Position numbers and translations under genes: made by a program
Source: a virus
Taxonomy: Duplodnaviria; Heunggongvirae; Uroviricota; Caudoviricetes
Direction: 5' to 3' (one strand)
Length of the DNA: 28,151 nt
Virus record (IMG/VR): IMGVR_UViG_2563366928_000002
Shown here: positions 731-28,151 of the stretch, in pieces
Layout of the letters: every line of letters starts with the position of its first letter
How positions within the stretch are numbered: the first letter of the stretch is position 1
Notes under the pieces: generated by a model
What the model saw: the letters and a program-made list of their open reading frames with translations, nothing else
What the model was told of the DNA's origin: nothing
The model's database searches: none

Positions 731-1046
731 TATAATAAACTTACTTTTTTATCATTTTTCCACTTTAACAACATTTTGCTCCACTTTTCCACGACCAAAC
801 AACTTGAAATCTGGTTAAAATAACACGCAACACTATTCTTCTTCCTTGAGTCCGCCCGGAACTCGAAAAACAAACCGAGTTAAAGCCATTTTTCACAAAA
901 TCGATTTTGGGTCTCACCAAAATTACGGGGTTGCATACGCATTCGTTTATTTTCGAACGTGTACATACAAACATGCACAAAAATAATCAAAATTATTTTC
1001 TGAGATGCATTATGATATGAACACCAATTTCGTATAGAGTCTCACT

Positions 1047-1637
1047 ATGTCTCGAATTTTTGCTTACTGTCGGATATCAACGCTGGATCAGACCACCGAA
1101 AATCAACGCCGGGAAATCGAAAGTGCAGGTTTTAAAATCAAACCTCAGCAAATAATCGAAGAACACATTAACGGCTCAGCAGCAACCAGTGAGCGTCCTG
1201 GTTTTAACCGGTTGCTTGCTCGCCTGAAATGTGGTGATCAATTGATTGTGACAAAACTGGATCGCCTTGGTTGTAATGCAATGGATATCAGGAAAACAGT
1301 GGAACAACTGACCGAAACAGGTATCAGAGTGCATTGCTTAGCATTGGGGGGCATTGACCTGACCAGTCCAACAGGAAAAATGATGATGCAAGTAATTTCA
1401 GCAGTCGCTGAATTTGAACGAGACCTTTTACTTGAACGCACTCATTCCGGGATAGTAAGAGCCCGGGGCGCAGGGAAACGTTTTGGTCGACCACCTGTGT
1501 TAAATGAAGAACAGAAACAGGTGGTATTCGAACGGATTAAGTCAGGTGTAAGTATAAGTGCCATTGCCCGGGAATTCAAAACCTCGCGGCAAACCATTTT
1601 AAGAGCCAAAGCAAAACTTCAGACACCTGACATATAA
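1047..1637 (+). CDS. pin: serine recombinase, Pin/Gin/Hin DNA-invertase family
   Basis: 196 aa; N-terminal catalytic region with CRISTLDQ (active-site Ser) and C-terminal HTH; convergent with the tail fiber operon as pinR/pinQ are in K-12 prophages. Confidence 0.9.
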
Positions 1638-1864
1638 AAAATAATCTCGGTGTGAGATGCCTTACGTCTTCCAAGCCCCCTTCCTTGCCGTAAATGGAAA
1701 GATACATCTAATTATAGAATTTATATGTTTTACCCTACGGCAGTGCTGGCCATTCAATATCCTGTGCAGTTGACGTATCAACACGGTTCAGCAACACCCG
1801 ATACTTCTTCCAGGCTTCCCGCAACGAGGTTTCTTCCTCCGTTGCATATACAGCTCACCTTTTT

Positions 1865-2158
1865 TCACCCACGATTAACCAACAGCCAGACCAGCAGACA
1901 CGCCACCACCGGCACAGCAAAATCCATCAGGCTTGCCACATCCCACGCACGCGGATCAAAACCGCCCCACCACGGCATATTCATACGCTTGCCATGCCCG
2001 AACATTTCAATCCAGCGATATTCTGCCTGGGTATGTTCACGCGCAATGAAGAACGTACAACCAGCTATCGCCCCGTAAGCCCAGTTTCCGGTAAAAAGAC
2101 CAACCAGTACCTGCGCAGCCACAGCACAAAGTGCATGAAGGAAAGGTGTTATATCCAT
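1865..2158 (-). CDS. hypothetical small membrane protein (two predicted TM segments)
   Basis: 97 aa; AAGGAGG Shine-Dalgarno 4 nt before ATG; start 10 nt after the stop of the 234-aa gene; hydrophobic N- and C-terminal stretches. Confidence 0.5.
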   Translation of the reverse strand: MDITPFLHALCAVAAQVLVGLFTGNWAYGAIAGCTFFIAREHTQAEYRWIEMFGHGKRMNMPWWGGFDPRAWDVASLMDFAVPVVACLLVWLLVNRG

Positions 2159-2168
2159 TACGCCTCCT

Positions 2169-2873
2169 TTATCCGATATCGCTTCGGGAAACGGATAACA
2201 ACTTTAATTCTGACTCAAGTTCATCAACTCTTTCAGTCAGCTTCTGGATATGGTGAATCAGTGGAACAACCAGACGTTCGTACATTACACCTTCGGCAAC
2301 AAGGCCATTGCTGGAAATGGTTTCCGGTGCATCATCTTCGTTGGCTGGTCGCCAGTGAACAAACTGAGGGGCAATTTCTCCAACTTCCTCGGCAATCAAT
2401 CCATAGAATCCCCAGTCACGCCTGTCATTTTCGCATTGCGACCTGTACCACACAGGGCGCATCCTGAAAATGAGATCGGCGTGCTCTGAATCTATCGTCT
2501 CTACTGAATGTTTATAGCGGATAGACGATGTTGACCGCAGCACAGACGAAATTGCAGGGTCAGGATTAAGATAAAGATTTGCCGCCGCTGTAGTTGTGCC
2601 CAATCCCCATAAATAAAACGCTTCACGGCCAGTCAGCGGGTAAAAATCTCCGCCATAACGACCACTTTCCAGATCGTTCACTTCCACTTTGTTTTTCAGC
2701 TTATTATCAACTTCAGTTTTTGTGTATCTGGTGCTGATATCCTGCTTTGCACTGGCCATATCAGTCTGAAGCGTTGATACTTTTCCGTTAATAGAGGAAA
2801 TATCTTCCTTTGCTTTACTAACATCTCCCTTCAGCGTGGTGATGTCTCCCGGAATTACTGTTGATGTAGCCAT
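2169..2873 (-). CDS. tail-fiber-like protein with C-terminal intramolecular-chaperone (peptidase S74-like) domain
   Basis: 234 aa; GAGG 8 nt before ATG; N-terminal ~11-residue repeats (GDITTLKGDVS / KAKEDISSING / KVSTLQTDMAS); C-terminal FYGLIAEEVGEIAPQFV ... VMYERLVVPLIHHIQKLTERVDELESEL resembles the autochaperone domain of tail fibers and tailspikes. Confidence 0.5.
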   Translation of the reverse strand: MATSTVIPGDITTLKGDVSKAKEDISSINGKVSTLQTDMASAKQDISTRYTKTEVDNKLKNKVEVNDLESGRYGGDFYPLTGREAFYLWGLGTTTAAANLYLNPDPAISSVLRSTSSIRYKHSVETIDSEHADLIFRMRPVWYRSQCENDRRDWGFYGLIAEEVGEIAPQFVHWRPANEDDAPETISSNGLVAEGVMYERLVVPLIHHIQKLTERVDELESELKLLSVSRSDIG

Positions 2874-2882
2874 TTCTCTACC

Positions 2883-3164
2883 TCACATCCAGCCACGAAG
2901 TTGATGCTCAACAGCAACCGCGTATTCATCGAATAATGACGATATTTGCGTATCCTTAATAATGCGCACGTTTACAAAATATCCATCTTCCTTAACACAT
3001 ACCGGTTCGCCATCTTCAGTCAGCTCTCCGGTTTCTTTGTACACGTTACCTATCACATCAATCAGAATATCATCCTGCATCGACTCGTCATTATAATAGC
3101 CAATACTTCCCATAAAGGCCGAAAAGTCGGCCCTGTCGGCAAATTTGAGTGTTAAATCTTTCAT
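2883..3164 (-). CDS. hypothetical acidic 93-aa protein, translationally coupled to the tail fiber gene
   Basis: ATG overlaps the stf stop (TAATG); GGGGGAG SD upstream; no recognisable family; sits where tfa would be expected. Confidence 0.45.
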   Translation of the reverse strand: MKDLTLKFADRADFSAFMGSIGYYNDESMQDDILIDVIGNVYKETGELTEDGEPVCVKEDGYFVNVRIIKDTQISSLFDEYAVAVEHQLRGWM

Positions 3165-5386
3165 TAGATTGACTCCCCCATCTGAGCATCAGTCAATGCC
3201 TTGTGCCAAATACGCAGATTTCGAACGTGTCCAAATAGGTGACGGTTGCCGGATGATGATTGACCACCAATATTAATGAAGCCTCCTGTATATTTGTGTT
3301 TTTTATAAGGAGAAACTACCTTAGCACCAATATTACCGTTAACCACAACACACAATTCTCGACTTTCTGTGAATCTAAAGCCGATAATGCTTTTTCTCTC
3401 TGGTCGTTCTATAACGCTTTTATATTCTATTTTAGTGCCTTTACCATTTGTAATGATTGCGCGTGCTCCCAAAGATGTATACCCCAAATACATATAACTT
3501 TCATCTGCAATTTCAGTTGTATCTCCCGTAGTGGAAATATTAAGAATACGTGCGCTACCTTCTTTGTTTGGCGATTCATCCCAATTGGTATTAACTTCTG
3601 CTAATGAACTAATAGCGGGATTGCACCAATTTAGAGAAATGGGGACCGTTACAATATCGCTGGCGCGTGTTACAGGGGATGCGCCTGTTATAATAAACGA
3701 TGAAGCGCATGCCCCACCTTCAACTTGAGGGGTCGCAATATAAATATAATCATCCGCGCCAGTGCCCACTCCTTTTGCCGGGGCATACTGAACCATTCCA
3801 CCTATCATATTTTCTGTATCAAGTGCCTTAATTGTCGCCTCAAAAAAGATCCATTTGCTTGCTTCATCTTTAACAGCCCTTGCAGTAATGCGATTAGCGG
3901 CACCACCCGTCTTATCAATAGATAAATCTGTCGTATTTAAGTAAGCGTCACCTAAGAATGTGTAGGTAGAACCATCATAGTTTTCAAATCGTAATCGGCA
4001 TCTTAAATTTGGAGTGCCACTTTGCACCCTGCATGATATGGTTACATACTTTTCTCCGCCTGTTACATCAAAACCTTTACTGCCGGAAACGGTTACTATG
4101 TTAATCGCTGAAATTTGCCCTACCATTTCTGGTTTTAATGTAAATTTTGCGTACTGGAATCCGAAATCATCTACACCTGATGCACTTAAGATCATATTTG
4201 ACGACTTGTTCCATTTAGTCGGATTTGTTGAATTGATTAGCAGGTTAGTTCTTTGCCCCTCAATAAGCAGGCCATCACGTTTAAATCGTGGCTCGTCAAT
4301 GGCAGCCTCTGTCAGCACACCAGATTTATTAATGTAAGTTGCTTTCGATGCGCGTTTAAACTTTACAATCTTGTCGCCAGGCATTGTTATTTCATCGTCG
4401 CCAATAACAATTTTTTTATATGATGGCGAAAAGCCCGTAATCATATCCAGTGAATCATTAAACGGTATCCACACATCGGGCAACGGCTGCAAAACTTGTT
4501 TATACGGCTCCGCTGCCTGGCTTGCATACTCTCTGGCTGCGTCTTCACTTGCTTTAGCTGCTGTCTGGCTTGCTGCCGATGCTTGCGCCGAGTTCGCCGC
4601 CGCAGTCTCGCTCGCCTTTGCGTTGGTTTCACTGGTTTTTGCTGCTTTTTGACTGTTAGCTGATGCAGTGGCAGAAGCAGCCGCCGCGCTTGCAGAACTG
4701 GCTGCGGCACTCTCGCTTTGGGCCGCTGCATCCTGACTGCTTTTCGCCGCAGTTTCACTGGCTTTGGCATTCGTTTCGCTGGTCTTCGCTGCCGTCTGGC
4801 TGGACTTTGCGTTGGTTTCGCTTGTCGTTGCGGCTGTCTCGCTATTTTTCGCGTTGGTTTCTGATTTTTTAGCTGCTGTTGCGGAGTTTGCCGATGCAGT
4901 CTGCGAGGCCGCTGCCGCCTGTGCGCTGTTAGCTGCATTCGTTTCTGAGGTTTTCGCCGCGTTCTTCGATGATGCCGCTGCAGTTTCGGATTTCTTTGCC
5001 GCCGCTGCGCTCTGAGAGGCGGCTTCAGCGTTGCGTGCCGCTTCTTCCACCATTTCCTCAAAACGACGCAATGCCTCCGGCATGACATCATCTTCCGTCA
5101 TGGCACCGAGAAAATCATTCAGCGTACCTGGTCTGGAACCTTCATAGACGGTAATGGTTCCGGCATGTGAAGGCGGAAAACCTTCAACCAGCAGGGTGAC
5201 GCTGTACTGGCTATACTCAACATCCATGCTGTAACGCCCGGCTTCATCCGGATTTTCAGAGGCCACCGTGTTGACCAGTACCGTGGTGCTGTTACGCTTT
5301 GCCTTCAGTTGAATAGTGCAGTTCTGTATTGGTTTTCCCGCACCATCTTTCAGCACACCTGAGATTTTTACTGCTGCCATATCCAC
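3164..5386 (-). CDS. stf: side tail fiber protein (lambda Stf-like N-terminus, divergent receptor-binding C-terminus)
   Basis: 740 aa; N-terminus MAAVKISGVLKDGAGKPIQNCTIQLKAKRNSTTV closely matches recalled lambda Stf; Ala/Ser-rich SETNAK-type repeats; C-terminus NLRIWHKALTDAQM looks like a lectin/LamG-type fold rather than the lambda Stf C-terminus. Confidence 0.85.
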   Translation of the reverse strand: MDMAAVKISGVLKDGAGKPIQNCTIQLKAKRNSTTVLVNTVASENPDEAGRYSMDVEYSQYSVTLLVEGFPPSHAGTITVYEGSRPGTLNDFLGAMTEDDVMPEALRRFEEMVEEAARNAEAASQSAAAAKKSETAAASSKNAAKTSETNAANSAQAAAASQTASANSATAAKKSETNAKNSETAATTSETNAKSSQTAAKTSETNAKASETAAKSSQDAAAQSESAAASSASAAAASATASANSQKAAKTSETNAKASETAAANSAQASAASQTAAKASEDAAREYASQAAEPYKQVLQPLPDVWIPFNDSLDMITGFSPSYKKIVIGDDEITMPGDKIVKFKRASKATYINKSGVLTEAAIDEPRFKRDGLLIEGQRTNLLINSTNPTKWNKSSNMILSASGVDDFGFQYAKFTLKPEMVGQISAINIVTVSGSKGFDVTGGEKYVTISCRVQSGTPNLRCRLRFENYDGSTYTFLGDAYLNTTDLSIDKTGGAANRITARAVKDEASKWIFFEATIKALDTENMIGGMVQYAPAKGVGTGADDYIYIATPQVEGGACASSFIITGASPVTRASDIVTVPISLNWCNPAISSLAEVNTNWDESPNKEGSARILNISTTGDTTEIADESYMYLGYTSLGARAIITNGKGTKIEYKSVIERPERKSIIGFRFTESRELCVVVNGNIGAKVVSPYKKHKYTGGFINIGGQSSSGNRHLFGHVRNLRIWHKALTDAQMGESI
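4540..5040. repeat. tandem degenerate ~36-nt coding repeats inside stf (Ala/Ser/Thr-rich fiber shaft)
   Basis: Reiterated GCTGC/TTTCGC/GGTTTC motifs encoding K(T/S)SETNAK(A/S)SETAA units; also generates spurious antisense ORFs. Confidence 0.7.
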
Positions 5387-5444: not shown

Positions 5445-6044
5445 TCAGAATTTATAACCGACACCCACGATGAAACCGTCAGTGCGCCAGTCGCCACTGC
5501 CGGAACCTTCATAAGCAATATCAATGGCCACGGATTCGGTCGGGTTAAACTGCACGCCAGCCCCCCATGCCAGAGACGTGTCGCTGTGGCGACCGTCATC
5601 ACTTCCGGTCAGCACATCGTGCGTTTTCCCCTTGTTGTCAGTTACGCGGATATAATCTCCGGAGAAAGTCGAAACACGGCTGTAAGCCATACCCGCCATC
5701 GCATACGCGCTGAACCATTCATTCACGCGCACAGACGGCCCCACCATCACGCTGAACCAGCGGTTACGCACGGAATCTTCATGCCAGCGGGTATCGCTGT
5801 AACGGGTAAGCTGGCGATTCTTGTCTCCTGCATAGCTGAATGACGTCACCATCCCCAGTGTGTCCGTAAACTCATAACGGTATTTCACGTTAATCCCGTT
5901 CAGATCATCGCTGCCGGGAACGTTCGTCGAGGCATGAAGATACCCCGCGCTCAGCGTGGACTGATGTTCAGATGCCCATGCAGGCGCACCGGATACGGCC
6001 AGACAAATGGCTGCGGAAAAAATGGCGGCACAAACTTTACGCAT
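5445..6044 (-). CDS. lom: Lom/Ail/PagC-family outer membrane beta-barrel protein
   Basis: 199 aa with signal peptide, alternating beta-strand pattern and C-terminal GYKF; position between J and stf as in lambda. Confidence 0.8.
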
Positions 6045-6959: not shown

Positions 6960-9862
<2,903 letters not shown>

Positions 9863-21683: not shown

Positions 21684-21890
21684 CTTCATTTTCACTTTTT
21701 TAAATCCAACGACAGACGGCTGGCATTTAAGTATTGTGAAATATTATCAAATGTAATCATCATTGATTTACAAAAGATACATTTTGCCCCGAAAGGATTC
21801 ATGTCAGAAACATCAAAAGATGATGTTCTATACTGGGAACCATGACAACACGGGCATCTAAAGTGAATATGGTTTGTAATATTGTCTACC

Positions 21891-22103
21891 TCAAAGCGCC
21901 ACTACATGAACAGCGGCAGGACCTTTAGGTCCGTTCTCAATACCAAATTCAACTTCCTGATTCTCAGTTAATGTTTTGAAATCGTTGCTCTGAATTGCTG
22001 AGAAATGGACAAACACATCTTTGCTGCCATCTTTCGGCGTGATGAAACCAAAACCTTTTTCAGGGTTAAACCATTTCACTAAACCAGTCATTTTGTTAGA
22101 CAT
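21891..22103 (-). CDS. cspI: cold shock protein CspI (CspA family)
   Basis: 70 aa; [38 protein letters not shown] with RNP1/RNP2 motifs. Confidence 0.9.
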
Positions 22104-22465
22104 AATTATTACCTTTTGAAGAAATTAGCCCTTGGGCAGAATGGTCCGAAAAAAAATATCAGAGAGAAAAACCAACAAGGAAATCTCAAGAGGTACAAAT
22201 AATAAAATTATAACAATGACTGCTTCAGATAAATTTGTAACAAACCAGAACACCATTAACGCATGATTAACCACCCATAGCAAGGATTACTTTTGTAAAG
22301 AAAAACACAGCAATGAAAGAATAGCTTTATTTATTAATAAAACGTGTCATTCTGATTAAGACCTTTTATCTTACCCTTAAGATTTCAGGAATTTTGGCTC
22401 ATGGAAGAGTCCTTTTTATTTAAATTTTACATTCCGCGATGTAAATGTTCCGATTTAATATTACC

Positions 22466-24493: not shown

Positions 24494-24774
24494 GAGATTG
24501 TGGTGCTTTTTGTGGGAGTCATCCACTTACGCACTTTGTTTTGCCATGCCAGCAGTTAGCTTCTGCTGTAAAACTATTCATGCAGCAAACCTGCACTTCA
24601 CCACAATGGTTAGCATACTTTTCCTGATTAAGATTTTGCCAAATATGCTAGCCATTGTTTCATGTATTGGACCTCCTTACTTTTTATTAAAGAGATCCAA
24701 TATTCACTACTCTGTCCGTATCTCTACTCAGGCATCAGCCTTCTTCGTTATCGTATACAGACGAGCGATGAATT

Positions 24775-24990
24775 TTAATCAGTAATGATGACATTTGCTG
24801 CTGCAGGACCTTTAGCACCACTCTCTATAGAGAAGGTAACCTTTTGACCTTCAAATAAGGTTCGATAATTATCATTCTGAATCGCAGAAAAATGCACAAA
24901 CACATCTTTACTACCATCAACAGGAGAAATAAAGCCGAAACCTTTGTCAGCGTTAAACCATTTTACTAAACCAGTCATTTTATTTGACAT
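24775..24990 (-). CDS. cspB: cold shock protein CspB (CspA family)
   Basis: 71 aa; [38 protein letters not shown]. Confidence 0.9.
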
Positions 24991-25290
24991 TCTACATTCC
25001 TTAACTTGAGCCTTTCGGCATAAATGGTTTGCATAACAGAAACGACTTCGTACTTAATTGGAGAGACTCAAAGAAGGAATAAGTGAATAACACCTGAAAT
25101 GAGAACTGCTTTAGTAAACTACTTCGTATATCGTCTGTTCTTCAAACCGACGCAATCATTAACGCATAGTTGAACATATGAAGCAATGTTTATTTTAGAC
25201 ATCCAGCCATCTTCAACCCCATCAAAAAACTATAGCTTTCTTCAGGAACGTGTGTATAGTGCGCCAAGTTATCAGTATTAAGGAATTTTT

Positions 25291-27740: not shown

Positions 27741-27993
27741 GTTACCTCCAGATCCGTTGCTGGAAAGTGCGGGACGCACGTGGTGGGCGTTCGGAATAAG
27801 GCAGCCTGACAGAGATTATCCAGTGCCGATAGTCGAGACTGAGAGCTTTCTTAACCTCGAACCCGCGCCTGCGGTAAGAATGAATCAGCCATTCGGCCTG
27901 TTCTGCAGTGCATGGAGGGTGCCGGGACCATTCAGACTTGAATGCGTGAGAATACCGCCCGTGCGTGCAGGCAAGAACGGGCGAATTATCAGG

Positions 27994-28151
27994 GTGATGC
28001 TGCCAACTTACTGATTTAGTGTATGATGGTGTTTTTGAGGTGCTCCAGTGGCTTCTGTTTCTATCAGCTGTCCCTCCTGTTCAGCTACTGACGGGGTGGT
28101 GCGTAACGGCAAAAGCACCGCCGGACATCAGCGCTATCTCTGCTCTCACTG
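27994..28151 (+). mobile_element. IS1 left end (partial, element continues right of window)
   Basis: GGTGATGCTGCCAACTTACTGATTTAGTGTATGATGGTGTTTTTGAGGTGCTCCAGTGGCTTCTG... matches recalled IS1 left terminus. Confidence 0.9.
28048..28151 (+). CDS. insA: IS1 InsA N-terminal part (partial CDS, GTG start)
   Basis: Translation (M)[34 protein letters not shown] matches recalled InsA zinc-finger N-terminus. Confidence 0.85.

Follow-up and report, generated by a model that had tools for sequence, protein, structure and literature searches.

A probable fossil Tn3-family mini-transposon at the pinQ/pinR recombinase locus of lambda-like prophages

The pinR and pinQ genes of Escherichia coli K-12 have carried the annotation 'DNA invertase' for decades; it was assigned by analogy, and no invertible segment is known for them. 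Among elements of the Tn3 family, the non-autonomous TIMEs are short and carry no gene. Here we describe a pin locus in a viral DNA of 28,151 nucleotides (Caudoviricetes; IMG/VR record IMGVR_UViG_2563366928_000002), the whole of which we call the window. The pin gene (1047-1637, plus strand) is an open reading frame (ORF) for a serine recombinase of 196 amino acids (Pfam Resolvase, 1.6e-35; HTH_7, 3.8e-11) that carries the PHROG 125 annotation 'DNA invertase'. With its flanks (970 bp) it is at least 99% identical in nucleotide sequence to annotated pinQ/pinR, and we refer to its product as PinQ. We propose, with a probability of about 0.85, that positions 847-1680 are an 834-bp fossil mini-transposon of the Tn3 family, without a transposase and laid out as terminal repeat, res, tnpR, terminal repeat. 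Its boundaries, homologies and res architecture, and an Arg-to-Cys change in the recombinase, are directly observable. A mini-Tn3 origin would account for the missing invertible segment beside pinQ/pinR and would move the recombination site to 934-1036. The features of the element are as follows.

842-846: left copy of the target-site duplication, TTCCT, directly outside the boundary of the left repeat
847-885 (+): left terminal inverted repeat, degenerate; contains AAACCGAG at 872-879
886-933 (+): spacer of 48 bp between left repeat and res; holds the palindrome at 896-909
934-959 (+): predicted res site I, the presumed crossover site, 26 bp, decayed; CATACGCAT-N8-TTTCGAACG
974-1005 (+): predicted res site II, 32 bp, decayed; TGCACAAAA-N14-TTTCTGAGA
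1011-1016 (+): likely -10 hexamer of the pin promoter, TATGAT, in conserved columns between sites II and III
1018-1036 (+): third conserved block, tentatively res site III, 19 bp; TGAACACCAATTTCGTATA
1272-1274 (+): codon TGT for Cys76, where Tn3/gamma-delta resolvase has its catalytic Arg (R71)
1646-1680 (-): right terminal inverted repeat, degenerate, with a 3-bp deletion; homologous to the repeats of the plasmid copy L003 and of the autonomous element
1681-1685: right copy of the target-site duplication, TTCCT, directly outside the right boundary

Relatives and boundaries of the element

A preliminary description of this DNA, made from the sequence alone, had read pin as a Pin-family invertase without an obvious invertible segment. 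The nearest relatives of the protein (59-82% amino acid identity) speak against a classical invertase of the Gin/Hin/Pin type whose segment has gone, as they include TnpR resolvases that adjoin Tn3-family transposases. PinQ is 82% identical to a recombinase encoded on pEM22-18-53_3 (L003), a plasmid of the avian pathogenic E. coli (APEC) type, and 77% identical to a Shewanella TnpR beside a Tn3 transposase; identities to the more distant relatives in other genomes are 59-78%. On pEM22-18-53_3 the gene lies in a unit of 852 bp with a 49-nt inverted repeat (82%) around it and no transposase. Many plasmids of E. coli and Klebsiella carry this unit at 99-100% identity.

A complete relative, an element of 3815 bp with the layout tnpA-res-tnpR, is present on the E. 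coli plasmid pSJ7-2. It has perfect 38-bp terminal repeats (GGGGTCCGCTTGGAAAACGGAAAATATCCCACGCTAAG) and a fresh 5-bp target duplication (GTATA); the annotated Tn3-family transposase is divergent from the resolvase gene, and the right repeat follows directly after the recombinase stop codon. In Shewanella (L014), a divergent upstream ORF of 1033 amino acids matches DDE_Tnp_Tn3 (1.4e-148) and DUF4158 (1.9e-44), and the terminal repeat is near-identical to that of pSJ7-2. In Shewanella baltica (L115), a 'Tn3-like element ISSba14 family transposase' is annotated beside the recombinase, and TnpA is also present in L114/L116. Because the recombinase genes adjoin Tn3-family transposases (L014, L115) and sit within the pSJ7-2 element, the pin-related proteins of these relatives are, by their gene context, transposon resolvases (TnpR). 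A Budvicia locus (L023) considered as a second mini-element was rejected, being a deletion derivative that keeps a fragment of the tnpA end. Erwinia oleae (L018) has two resolvase genes (1299-1864 and 2068-2633) in a 566-nt inverted repeat of 74%, and the intergenic region that they share bears res-like motifs at both of its sides. Five rare proteins (P0004-P0008) are chimeric, with an N-terminal half identical to the plasmid type (Arg) and a C-terminal half identical to the PinQ type; they are either true plasmid-prophage recombinants or assembly chimeras from short contigs.

Homology between the window and L003 starts exactly at 847 and ends exactly at 1680, and the flanks are unrelated; the left boundary is thus fixed by the end of the L003 homology, independently of TTCCT. 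Without gaps, 847-884 matches the left repeat of L003 at 26 of 38 positions and the perfect pSJ7-2 repeat at 24 of 38, and the right repeat, with one 3-bp gap, matches that of L003 at 26 of the 35 positions compared. When the pSJ7-2 repeat was compared with every position of the window (56,000 over the two strands), the two best matches were 847-884 (+) and 1683-1646 (-), at 24/38 each, the next best reaching 21/38. Identical TTCCT pentamers, as transposition of a Tn3-family element should leave behind, lie immediately outside the two boundaries (chance expectation about 1 in 1024). They are found in nearly all prophage copies with enough flanking sequence (89 left and 94 right flanks read), and variants (TTTCT, for instance) are few. 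Apart from pin, the interval between the repeats has no substantial gene. As no TnpA (DDE_Tnp_Tn3) is encoded there, we class the element as a non-autonomous derivative rather than as a transposon proper. The spacer at 886-933 aligns loosely, with a 12-bp indel, to that of the plasmid mini-element. It might be what is left of the 3' end of tnpA, although the likeness to the tnpA terminus of the pSJ7-2 and Shewanella elements is confined to the ~20 bp that come first inside the repeat.

The res array and the sequences at 861-915

Ten sequences, three from prophages and seven from transposons or plasmids, were aligned over the region from site I to the ATG. The ~115 bp that precede the start codon align nearly without gaps, although the proteins are only 60-82% identical, and in most of the more distant relatives they hold a regular array of TGTCCGAAA / TTTCGTACA motifs. 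Three blocks of 26, 32 and 19 bp, made of TGTMCGAAA half-sites, keep a constant register across the 10 sequences. Site I aligns ungapped to TGTCCGAAA-N8-TTTCGGACA in the seven transposon and plasmid relatives, and its centre is likely to be the crossover point. Site II consists of 9-bp half-sites around N14 and is 32 bp long in nine of the sequences and 33 bp in one. The third block reads [T/C]GTACA-N4-TTTCGTACA in all relatives, a motif that tentatively makes it a res subsite. Between the second and third blocks, the hexamer at 1011-1016 is TATGAT in the window and TATAAT in most relatives. It is likely the -10 element of the pin promoter, to judge by its conservation; a scan with a promoter consensus gave weak candidates only and did not list it.

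Decay of the array in the window is evident. The half-sites of site I score 5/9 and 7/9, against 8-9/9 in the relatives, and those of site II 7/9 each, with loss of the CG of CCGAAA. Summed over the array (of 45, against TGTMCGAAA), the three prophage copies score 34-35 and the relatives 36-44 (40-44 in six of the seven).

Matches to some portion of the mini-element exist in at least 5000 plasmid records. Among these, the low-coverage matches that were sampled, mostly on IncF plasmids next to pemIK, comprise the left repeat and ~74 bp; in the IncF matches, homology ends at position 12 of site I or just beyond it and gives way to a different half-site. Two such truncated left ends beside pemIK are the following.

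L031 (pCROD1), 1501-1612: truncated left end of the mini-element
L032 (pT257A), 1501-1612: truncated left end of the mini-element

These breaks look like hybrid res sites from resolvase-mediated recombination between two res. They were seen in plasmids only: among chromosomal copies, a distant-mode search of 780-1110 found no class of hits that breaks at site I.

The preliminary description had drawn attention to two sequences upstream of pin. It had rightly called CAAAATCGATTTTG (896-909) a perfect 14-bp palindrome, and the 8-mer AAACCGAG is present as it said, at 872-879 rather than one base earlier (871-878). Each alone is at chance level. Perfect 14-bp palindromes number two in the window, with about 1.7 to be expected (28151/4^7), and there is one copy of AAACCGAG against 0.73 expected, with at least one copy in 55 of 100 shuffles.

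The 8-mer had been likened to the core of a Gin/Hin-type crossover site. Taken up in full, this would make pin an orphan Gin/Hin/Pin invertase and 861-915 its leftover crossover site, with the partner elsewhere in the replicon. The position would suit such a site, as in Mu, P1 and e14 a crossover site directly precedes the invertase gene. The protein itself is 36-38% identical to Gin and PinE, with Gin as its best match among solved structures, and AAACCGAG is also part of gix. However, when gix was aligned by eye on the 8-mer, the 26 bp around it matched at 10/26 positions and the symmetric GGTTT half was missing. Degenerate hix/gix/pix consensus sequences and the published e14 pix repeat gave no match at or near the pin locus. 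No second copy of 861-915 exists in the 28-kb window at up to 3 mismatches, a scan for inverted repeats pairs nothing with that interval, and the core of the terminal repeat and res site I likewise have no second copy in the window at up to 3 mismatches. Nor is the palindrome a conserved site, being absent from the homologous pin loci of the plasmid and autonomous-transposon relatives. The 8-mer lies within the 38-bp block that aligns to Tn3-family terminal repeats, and is the inner part of the left repeat, the end that a Tn3-type transposase would bind, and not a crossover site. The available text of a 2025 paper also reports a BLAST survey without inversions in Rac or Qin (PMC12529663). We regard the idea of an orphan invertase with its crossover site as largely refuted and its truth as extremely unlikely. 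What survives of the suggested orphan or remnant site is that a recombination-related remnant does lie upstream of pin; the recombination site of the module is the predicted res array at 934-1036, outside 861-915.

Another reading of the palindrome makes it an operator or protein-binding site with control over pin or over the end of the transposon; the protein could be PinQ itself or a host factor such as IHF, bound beside the terminal repeat. IHF sites do lie directly inside the ends of gamma-delta. Of the prophage copies, 89 were read here, two of which have unrelated DNA upstream; in those that keep the region, the 12-bp core AAAATCGATTTT is unchanged, and the outer pair is C-G in most and A-T in nine, which preserves the 14-bp palindrome. 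Other short dyads occur at about the same place in related plasmid copies (AGTCA-AA-TGACT, AGCC-AAAG-GGCT) and in the autonomous element (TCGATATCGA), differing between the plasmid mini-element, pCROD1, pT257A and the autonomous element. Against a binding site, the outer pair is unpaired in seven copies (A-A, A-G, C-A) with no compensating change, the prophage copies diverge too little for the constancy of the core to tell much, and the Shewanella element has no dyad at this position. The half-site spacing does not fit a dimer site for a resolvase, the number of palindromes in the window is at chance, and the single-strand fold is not significant (z = -1.55). We therefore treat the palindrome as a lineage-specific feature of the spacer without a demonstrated role, and consider an operator or IHF-type site quite unlikely. 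A second, imperfect inverted repeat (904-923, ATTTTGG-N6-CCAAAAT) overlaps the right arm of the palindrome, and the motif CA(C/A)AAAAT or CCAAAAT occurs three times within 894-923.

Catalytic residue, selection and present role of PinQ

The window protein has the motif LDRLGC where all transposon copies, and Gin in an alignment from the PDB, have LDRLGR; gamma-delta resolvase and PinE have LDRLGR too in our alignment. Cys76 is found in 92 of the 94 prophage loci, and the remaining two are pseudogenes. Arg is present in 112 of the 120 closest clusters at 90% identity, with Cys solely in clusters of the PinQ type. Because the divergent O103-type cluster also carries Cys, the change is older than the split of the two prophage lineages. 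PinQ thus has Cys at a residue needed for catalysis by Tn3 resolvase, where R71A and R71K abolish recombination and lower cleavage about 1000-fold (PMC2794168). Of the catalytic set (Tn3 numbering Y6, R8, S10, D36, R68, R71), Y, R, S and R68 are present in PinQ. The D36 position is Glu across the whole PinQ/TnpR lineage, and only in the prophage copies is the R71 position Cys. The full catalytic set of small serine recombinases is not present, and recombination activity has presumably been lost. At codon 42 (1168-1170), the window protein has Asn, and 2H10, the copy of strain A22 and the transposon relatives have Ser; the position corresponds to S39 of Tn3 resolvase, where S39A keeps activity (PMC2794168).

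The two prophage lineages differ from each other with a dN/dS of 0.40; the value is 0.15 for prophage against plasmid copies and 0.05 between transposon copies. The pin reading frame therefore appears to be under relaxed yet persisting purifying selection.

A present function has been reported. In the available text of the 2025 paper (PMC12529663), overproduction of PinQ raised inversion of the e14 P segment from ~30% to ~88% and blocked adsorption of T2; T2 survivors carried the P-segment inversion, and the effect was lost on deletion of stfP, stfE or e14. PinQ/PinR could then be an active invertase in trans, with the e14 P segment as substrate and the gene kept as an anti-T2 defence switch. 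The reading frame, intact in thousands of genomes, and the dN/dS of 0.40 also favour this, as does a resemblance by eye between the pix half-site TTCTCCCAAACC and the site-I half-site TGTCCGAAACC (9/11 positions, after a 1-bp shift in register). According to the same text, however, a pinE mutant was locked in one orientation although pinQ and pinR were present, so that catalysis by PinQ alone is not established (PMC12529663). There is further the replacement by Cys of the Arg that Tn3 resolvase needs, the window has no pix-like site, and an invertase acting in trans leaves the terminal repeats, the res array and the target duplication unexplained. The locked pinE mutant and Cys76 make a direct role of PinQ as invertase uncertain, and we consider it possible but on the unlikely side. 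As it concerns present function only, it can be compatible with a mini-Tn3 origin.

Another possibility, which we think unlikely, is that PinQ/PinR is a domesticated transposon resolvase in which Arg was replaced by Cys before the prophage lineages split, and which lambda-like phages retained for a task other than resolution at its own res. Such a protein might serve as a DNA-binding regulator. Alternatively, it might bind the similar pix half-sites of e14 as an accessory factor and bias the inversion driven by PinE; if true, this would reconcile the T2-defence phenotype with the locked pinE mutant.

We found no paper that links pinQ/pinR to Tn3, and the available text of the 2025 paper makes no mention of Tn3 (PMC12529663). 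A mini-Tn3 origin bears on that paper's claim that PinQ is an active e14 invertase in phage defence, a claim that sits uneasily with the Arg-to-Cys change.

Locus, insertion history and comparison with known systems

Downstream of the element, pin faces a fibre module whose genes are the following.

1865-2158 (-): ORF facing pin, 97 amino acids, PHROG 1443, protein of unknown function
2169-2873 (-): gene facing pin, 234 amino acids, Peptidase_S74 chaperone domain
2883-3164: ORF in the fibre module, 93 amino acids
3164-5386 (-): tail fibre, 740 amino acids, phage_tail_N
5445-6044 (-): lom, beyond the tail fibre

The strands agree with the preliminary description, which had pin (plus) convergent with the fibre operon (all fibre genes minus). 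It had also seen neither alternative fibre C-termini on the opposite strand nor an invertible segment at the pin locus, and we find the same: plus-strand ORFs that overlap the fibre genes match no Pfam family. Because mEp460 and 2H10 have the same order (int, a ydfK-like gene and pin, with tfa, stf, lom and J on the opposite strand), a convergent arrangement lacking a segment is the rule at this locus. The pinQ/pinR module was found in 2675 of 5426 complete E. coli genomes (about half), and in lambdoid phages including mEp460, 2H10 and Tritos. The fibre module of the window differs from that of Rac and Qin of K-12 in having a separate S74 intramolecular-chaperone protein (234 amino acids) and the 97- and 93-amino-acid ORFs.

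Left flanks are the same in all but two of the 89 readable prophage copies, and all 94 right flanks are the same or near-identical. Because the prophage copies share flanks and duplication, the data point to a single old insertion. The mini-transposon would have inserted once into the genome of a lambda-like phage, in the interval from ydfK to the end of the tail-fibre operon, with duplication of TTCCT, and would then have been inherited along the phage lineage (Rac, Qin, mEp460, 2H10, Tritos). By analogy with Tn3 and gamma-delta, the ancestral resolvase ('Pin') would have bound the three-block res array directly upstream of its own gene, and resolved transposition cointegrates by recombining two directly repeated res at the site-I centre. 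Repression of its own promoter, which lies between the res blocks, was probably a further function. Because a resolvase of this kind acts on directly repeated res, no invertible segment would be needed, and none is present. Since then the system has decayed or found another use in the prophage copies: drift has affected the terminal repeats as well as the half-sites of res, and Cys has taken the place of the catalytic Arg, while the reading frame was kept. In a K-12-like genome (CP178308.1; L007 reversed, L013 forward), the pin copies of Rac and Qin are ~200 kb apart and inverted; recombination between them at site I would invert the ~200-kb interval with no visible local change.

Several observations weigh against a mini-Tn3 origin. 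By sequence, Gin is a better-scoring match to PinQ (104 bits) than gamma-delta resolvase is (81 bits), and site I, at 26 bp with an asymmetric centre, has the length of an invertase site. The third res block has just 19 bp and its status as a subsite is tentative, and binding of PinQ to 934-1036 is a prediction from sequence. If the P-segment inversion described in the available text of the 2025 paper is the work of PinQ itself, Cys76 spares catalysis (PMC12529663). The terminal repeats of the prophage form are degenerate (24-26 of 38), the right one needing a 3-bp gap, and the plasmid copy L003 has no target duplication. The prophage form is known from one insertion site only, and its own mobility is hence not evident. 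A constructed empty site (ydfK-TTCCT-fibre junction) had no contiguous match in 5426 E. coli genomes, only its separate halves, a result also consistent with a single old insertion.

Other searches add little to the identity of the module. NCBIfam and PHROGs gave only generic invertase/recombinase matches to the pin protein, below curated cut-offs, which do not name its family. Rfam has no match within 731-1046, and a terminator scan found none at the pin locus. Elsewhere in the window, Rfam identifies two cspA-type thermoregulator leaders (21864-22249 and 24759-25151, both minus) and the small RNA isrC (9242-9364, minus); together with ydfK/ynaM adjoining pin, they make the window look like a Qin-like prophage remnant. 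The window ends (1-58 and 27993-28151) are in inverted orientation, with 58 nt perfectly complementary and bounded only by the window edge. By eye, both resemble IS1 ends, and the window is probably an entire short-read contig with IS1 copies at its borders, a situation often met in Shigella or in E. coli rich in IS1. In E. coli O103:H2 (L004), a partial tail-fibre-assembly gene (3189-3401, minus) and an S-adenosylmethionine (SAM) methyltransferase lie upstream of ynaM/ydfK/pin, on the strand of the functional tfa, and are probably debris of an earlier prophage.

With Tn3 and gamma-delta (Tn1000) the pin module shares a small serine recombinase with Resolvase and HTH_7 domains, a res of several subsites upstream of tnpR with an overlapping promoter, a tnpA that is divergent in the autonomous relatives, 38-bp GGGG...TAAG repeats and a 5-bp target duplication. 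It differs in that its protein is ~32% identical to gamma-delta resolvase, its subsites are 26, 32 and 19 bp long (Tn3: 28, 34 and 25 bp), site I has an asymmetric centre (AC/GT, against AT), and the window element lacks a transposase, has decayed sites and carries Cys at the R71 position. The ISSba14-family elements and the pSJ7-2 transposon are closer, having the same resolvase lineage (~77-82% amino acid identity), a homologous res, terminal repeats that match at 24/38 and a resolvase gene that ends beside the right repeat. Unlike the degenerate window element, which has no tnpA, they are autonomous (tnpA of ~995 amino acids), with perfect repeats, consensus half-sites and the catalytic Arg.

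Gin, Hin, Cin and PinE belong to the same superfamily (36-38% identity) and have in common with pin a 26-bp crossover site, a place in phages or prophages near tail-fibre genes and the label 'DNA invertase'. The pin locus, however, has no inverted pair of crossover sites, no invertible segment and no alternative fibre ends, and pin is directed at the fibre operon rather than away from a segment. Its nearest relatives include transposon resolvases with accessory res blocks.

TIMEs, mobile insertion cassettes and mosaic non-autonomous transposons are, in the available parts of the literature, likewise without a transposase, bounded by family-type terminal repeats and able to move only with a related TnpA supplied in trans (PMC4133298, PMC13367494). 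The window element differs from TIMEs in retaining res and tnpR, and its prophage form is fixed at one site and probably immobile now. Since non-autonomous Tn3 derivatives are already known as a kind of element, the interest of this one lies in the prevalence of pinQ and in its current interpretation as an invertase: if our reading holds, the pinQ module would illustrate neatly how a phage lineage can capture a transposon resolvase and spread it.

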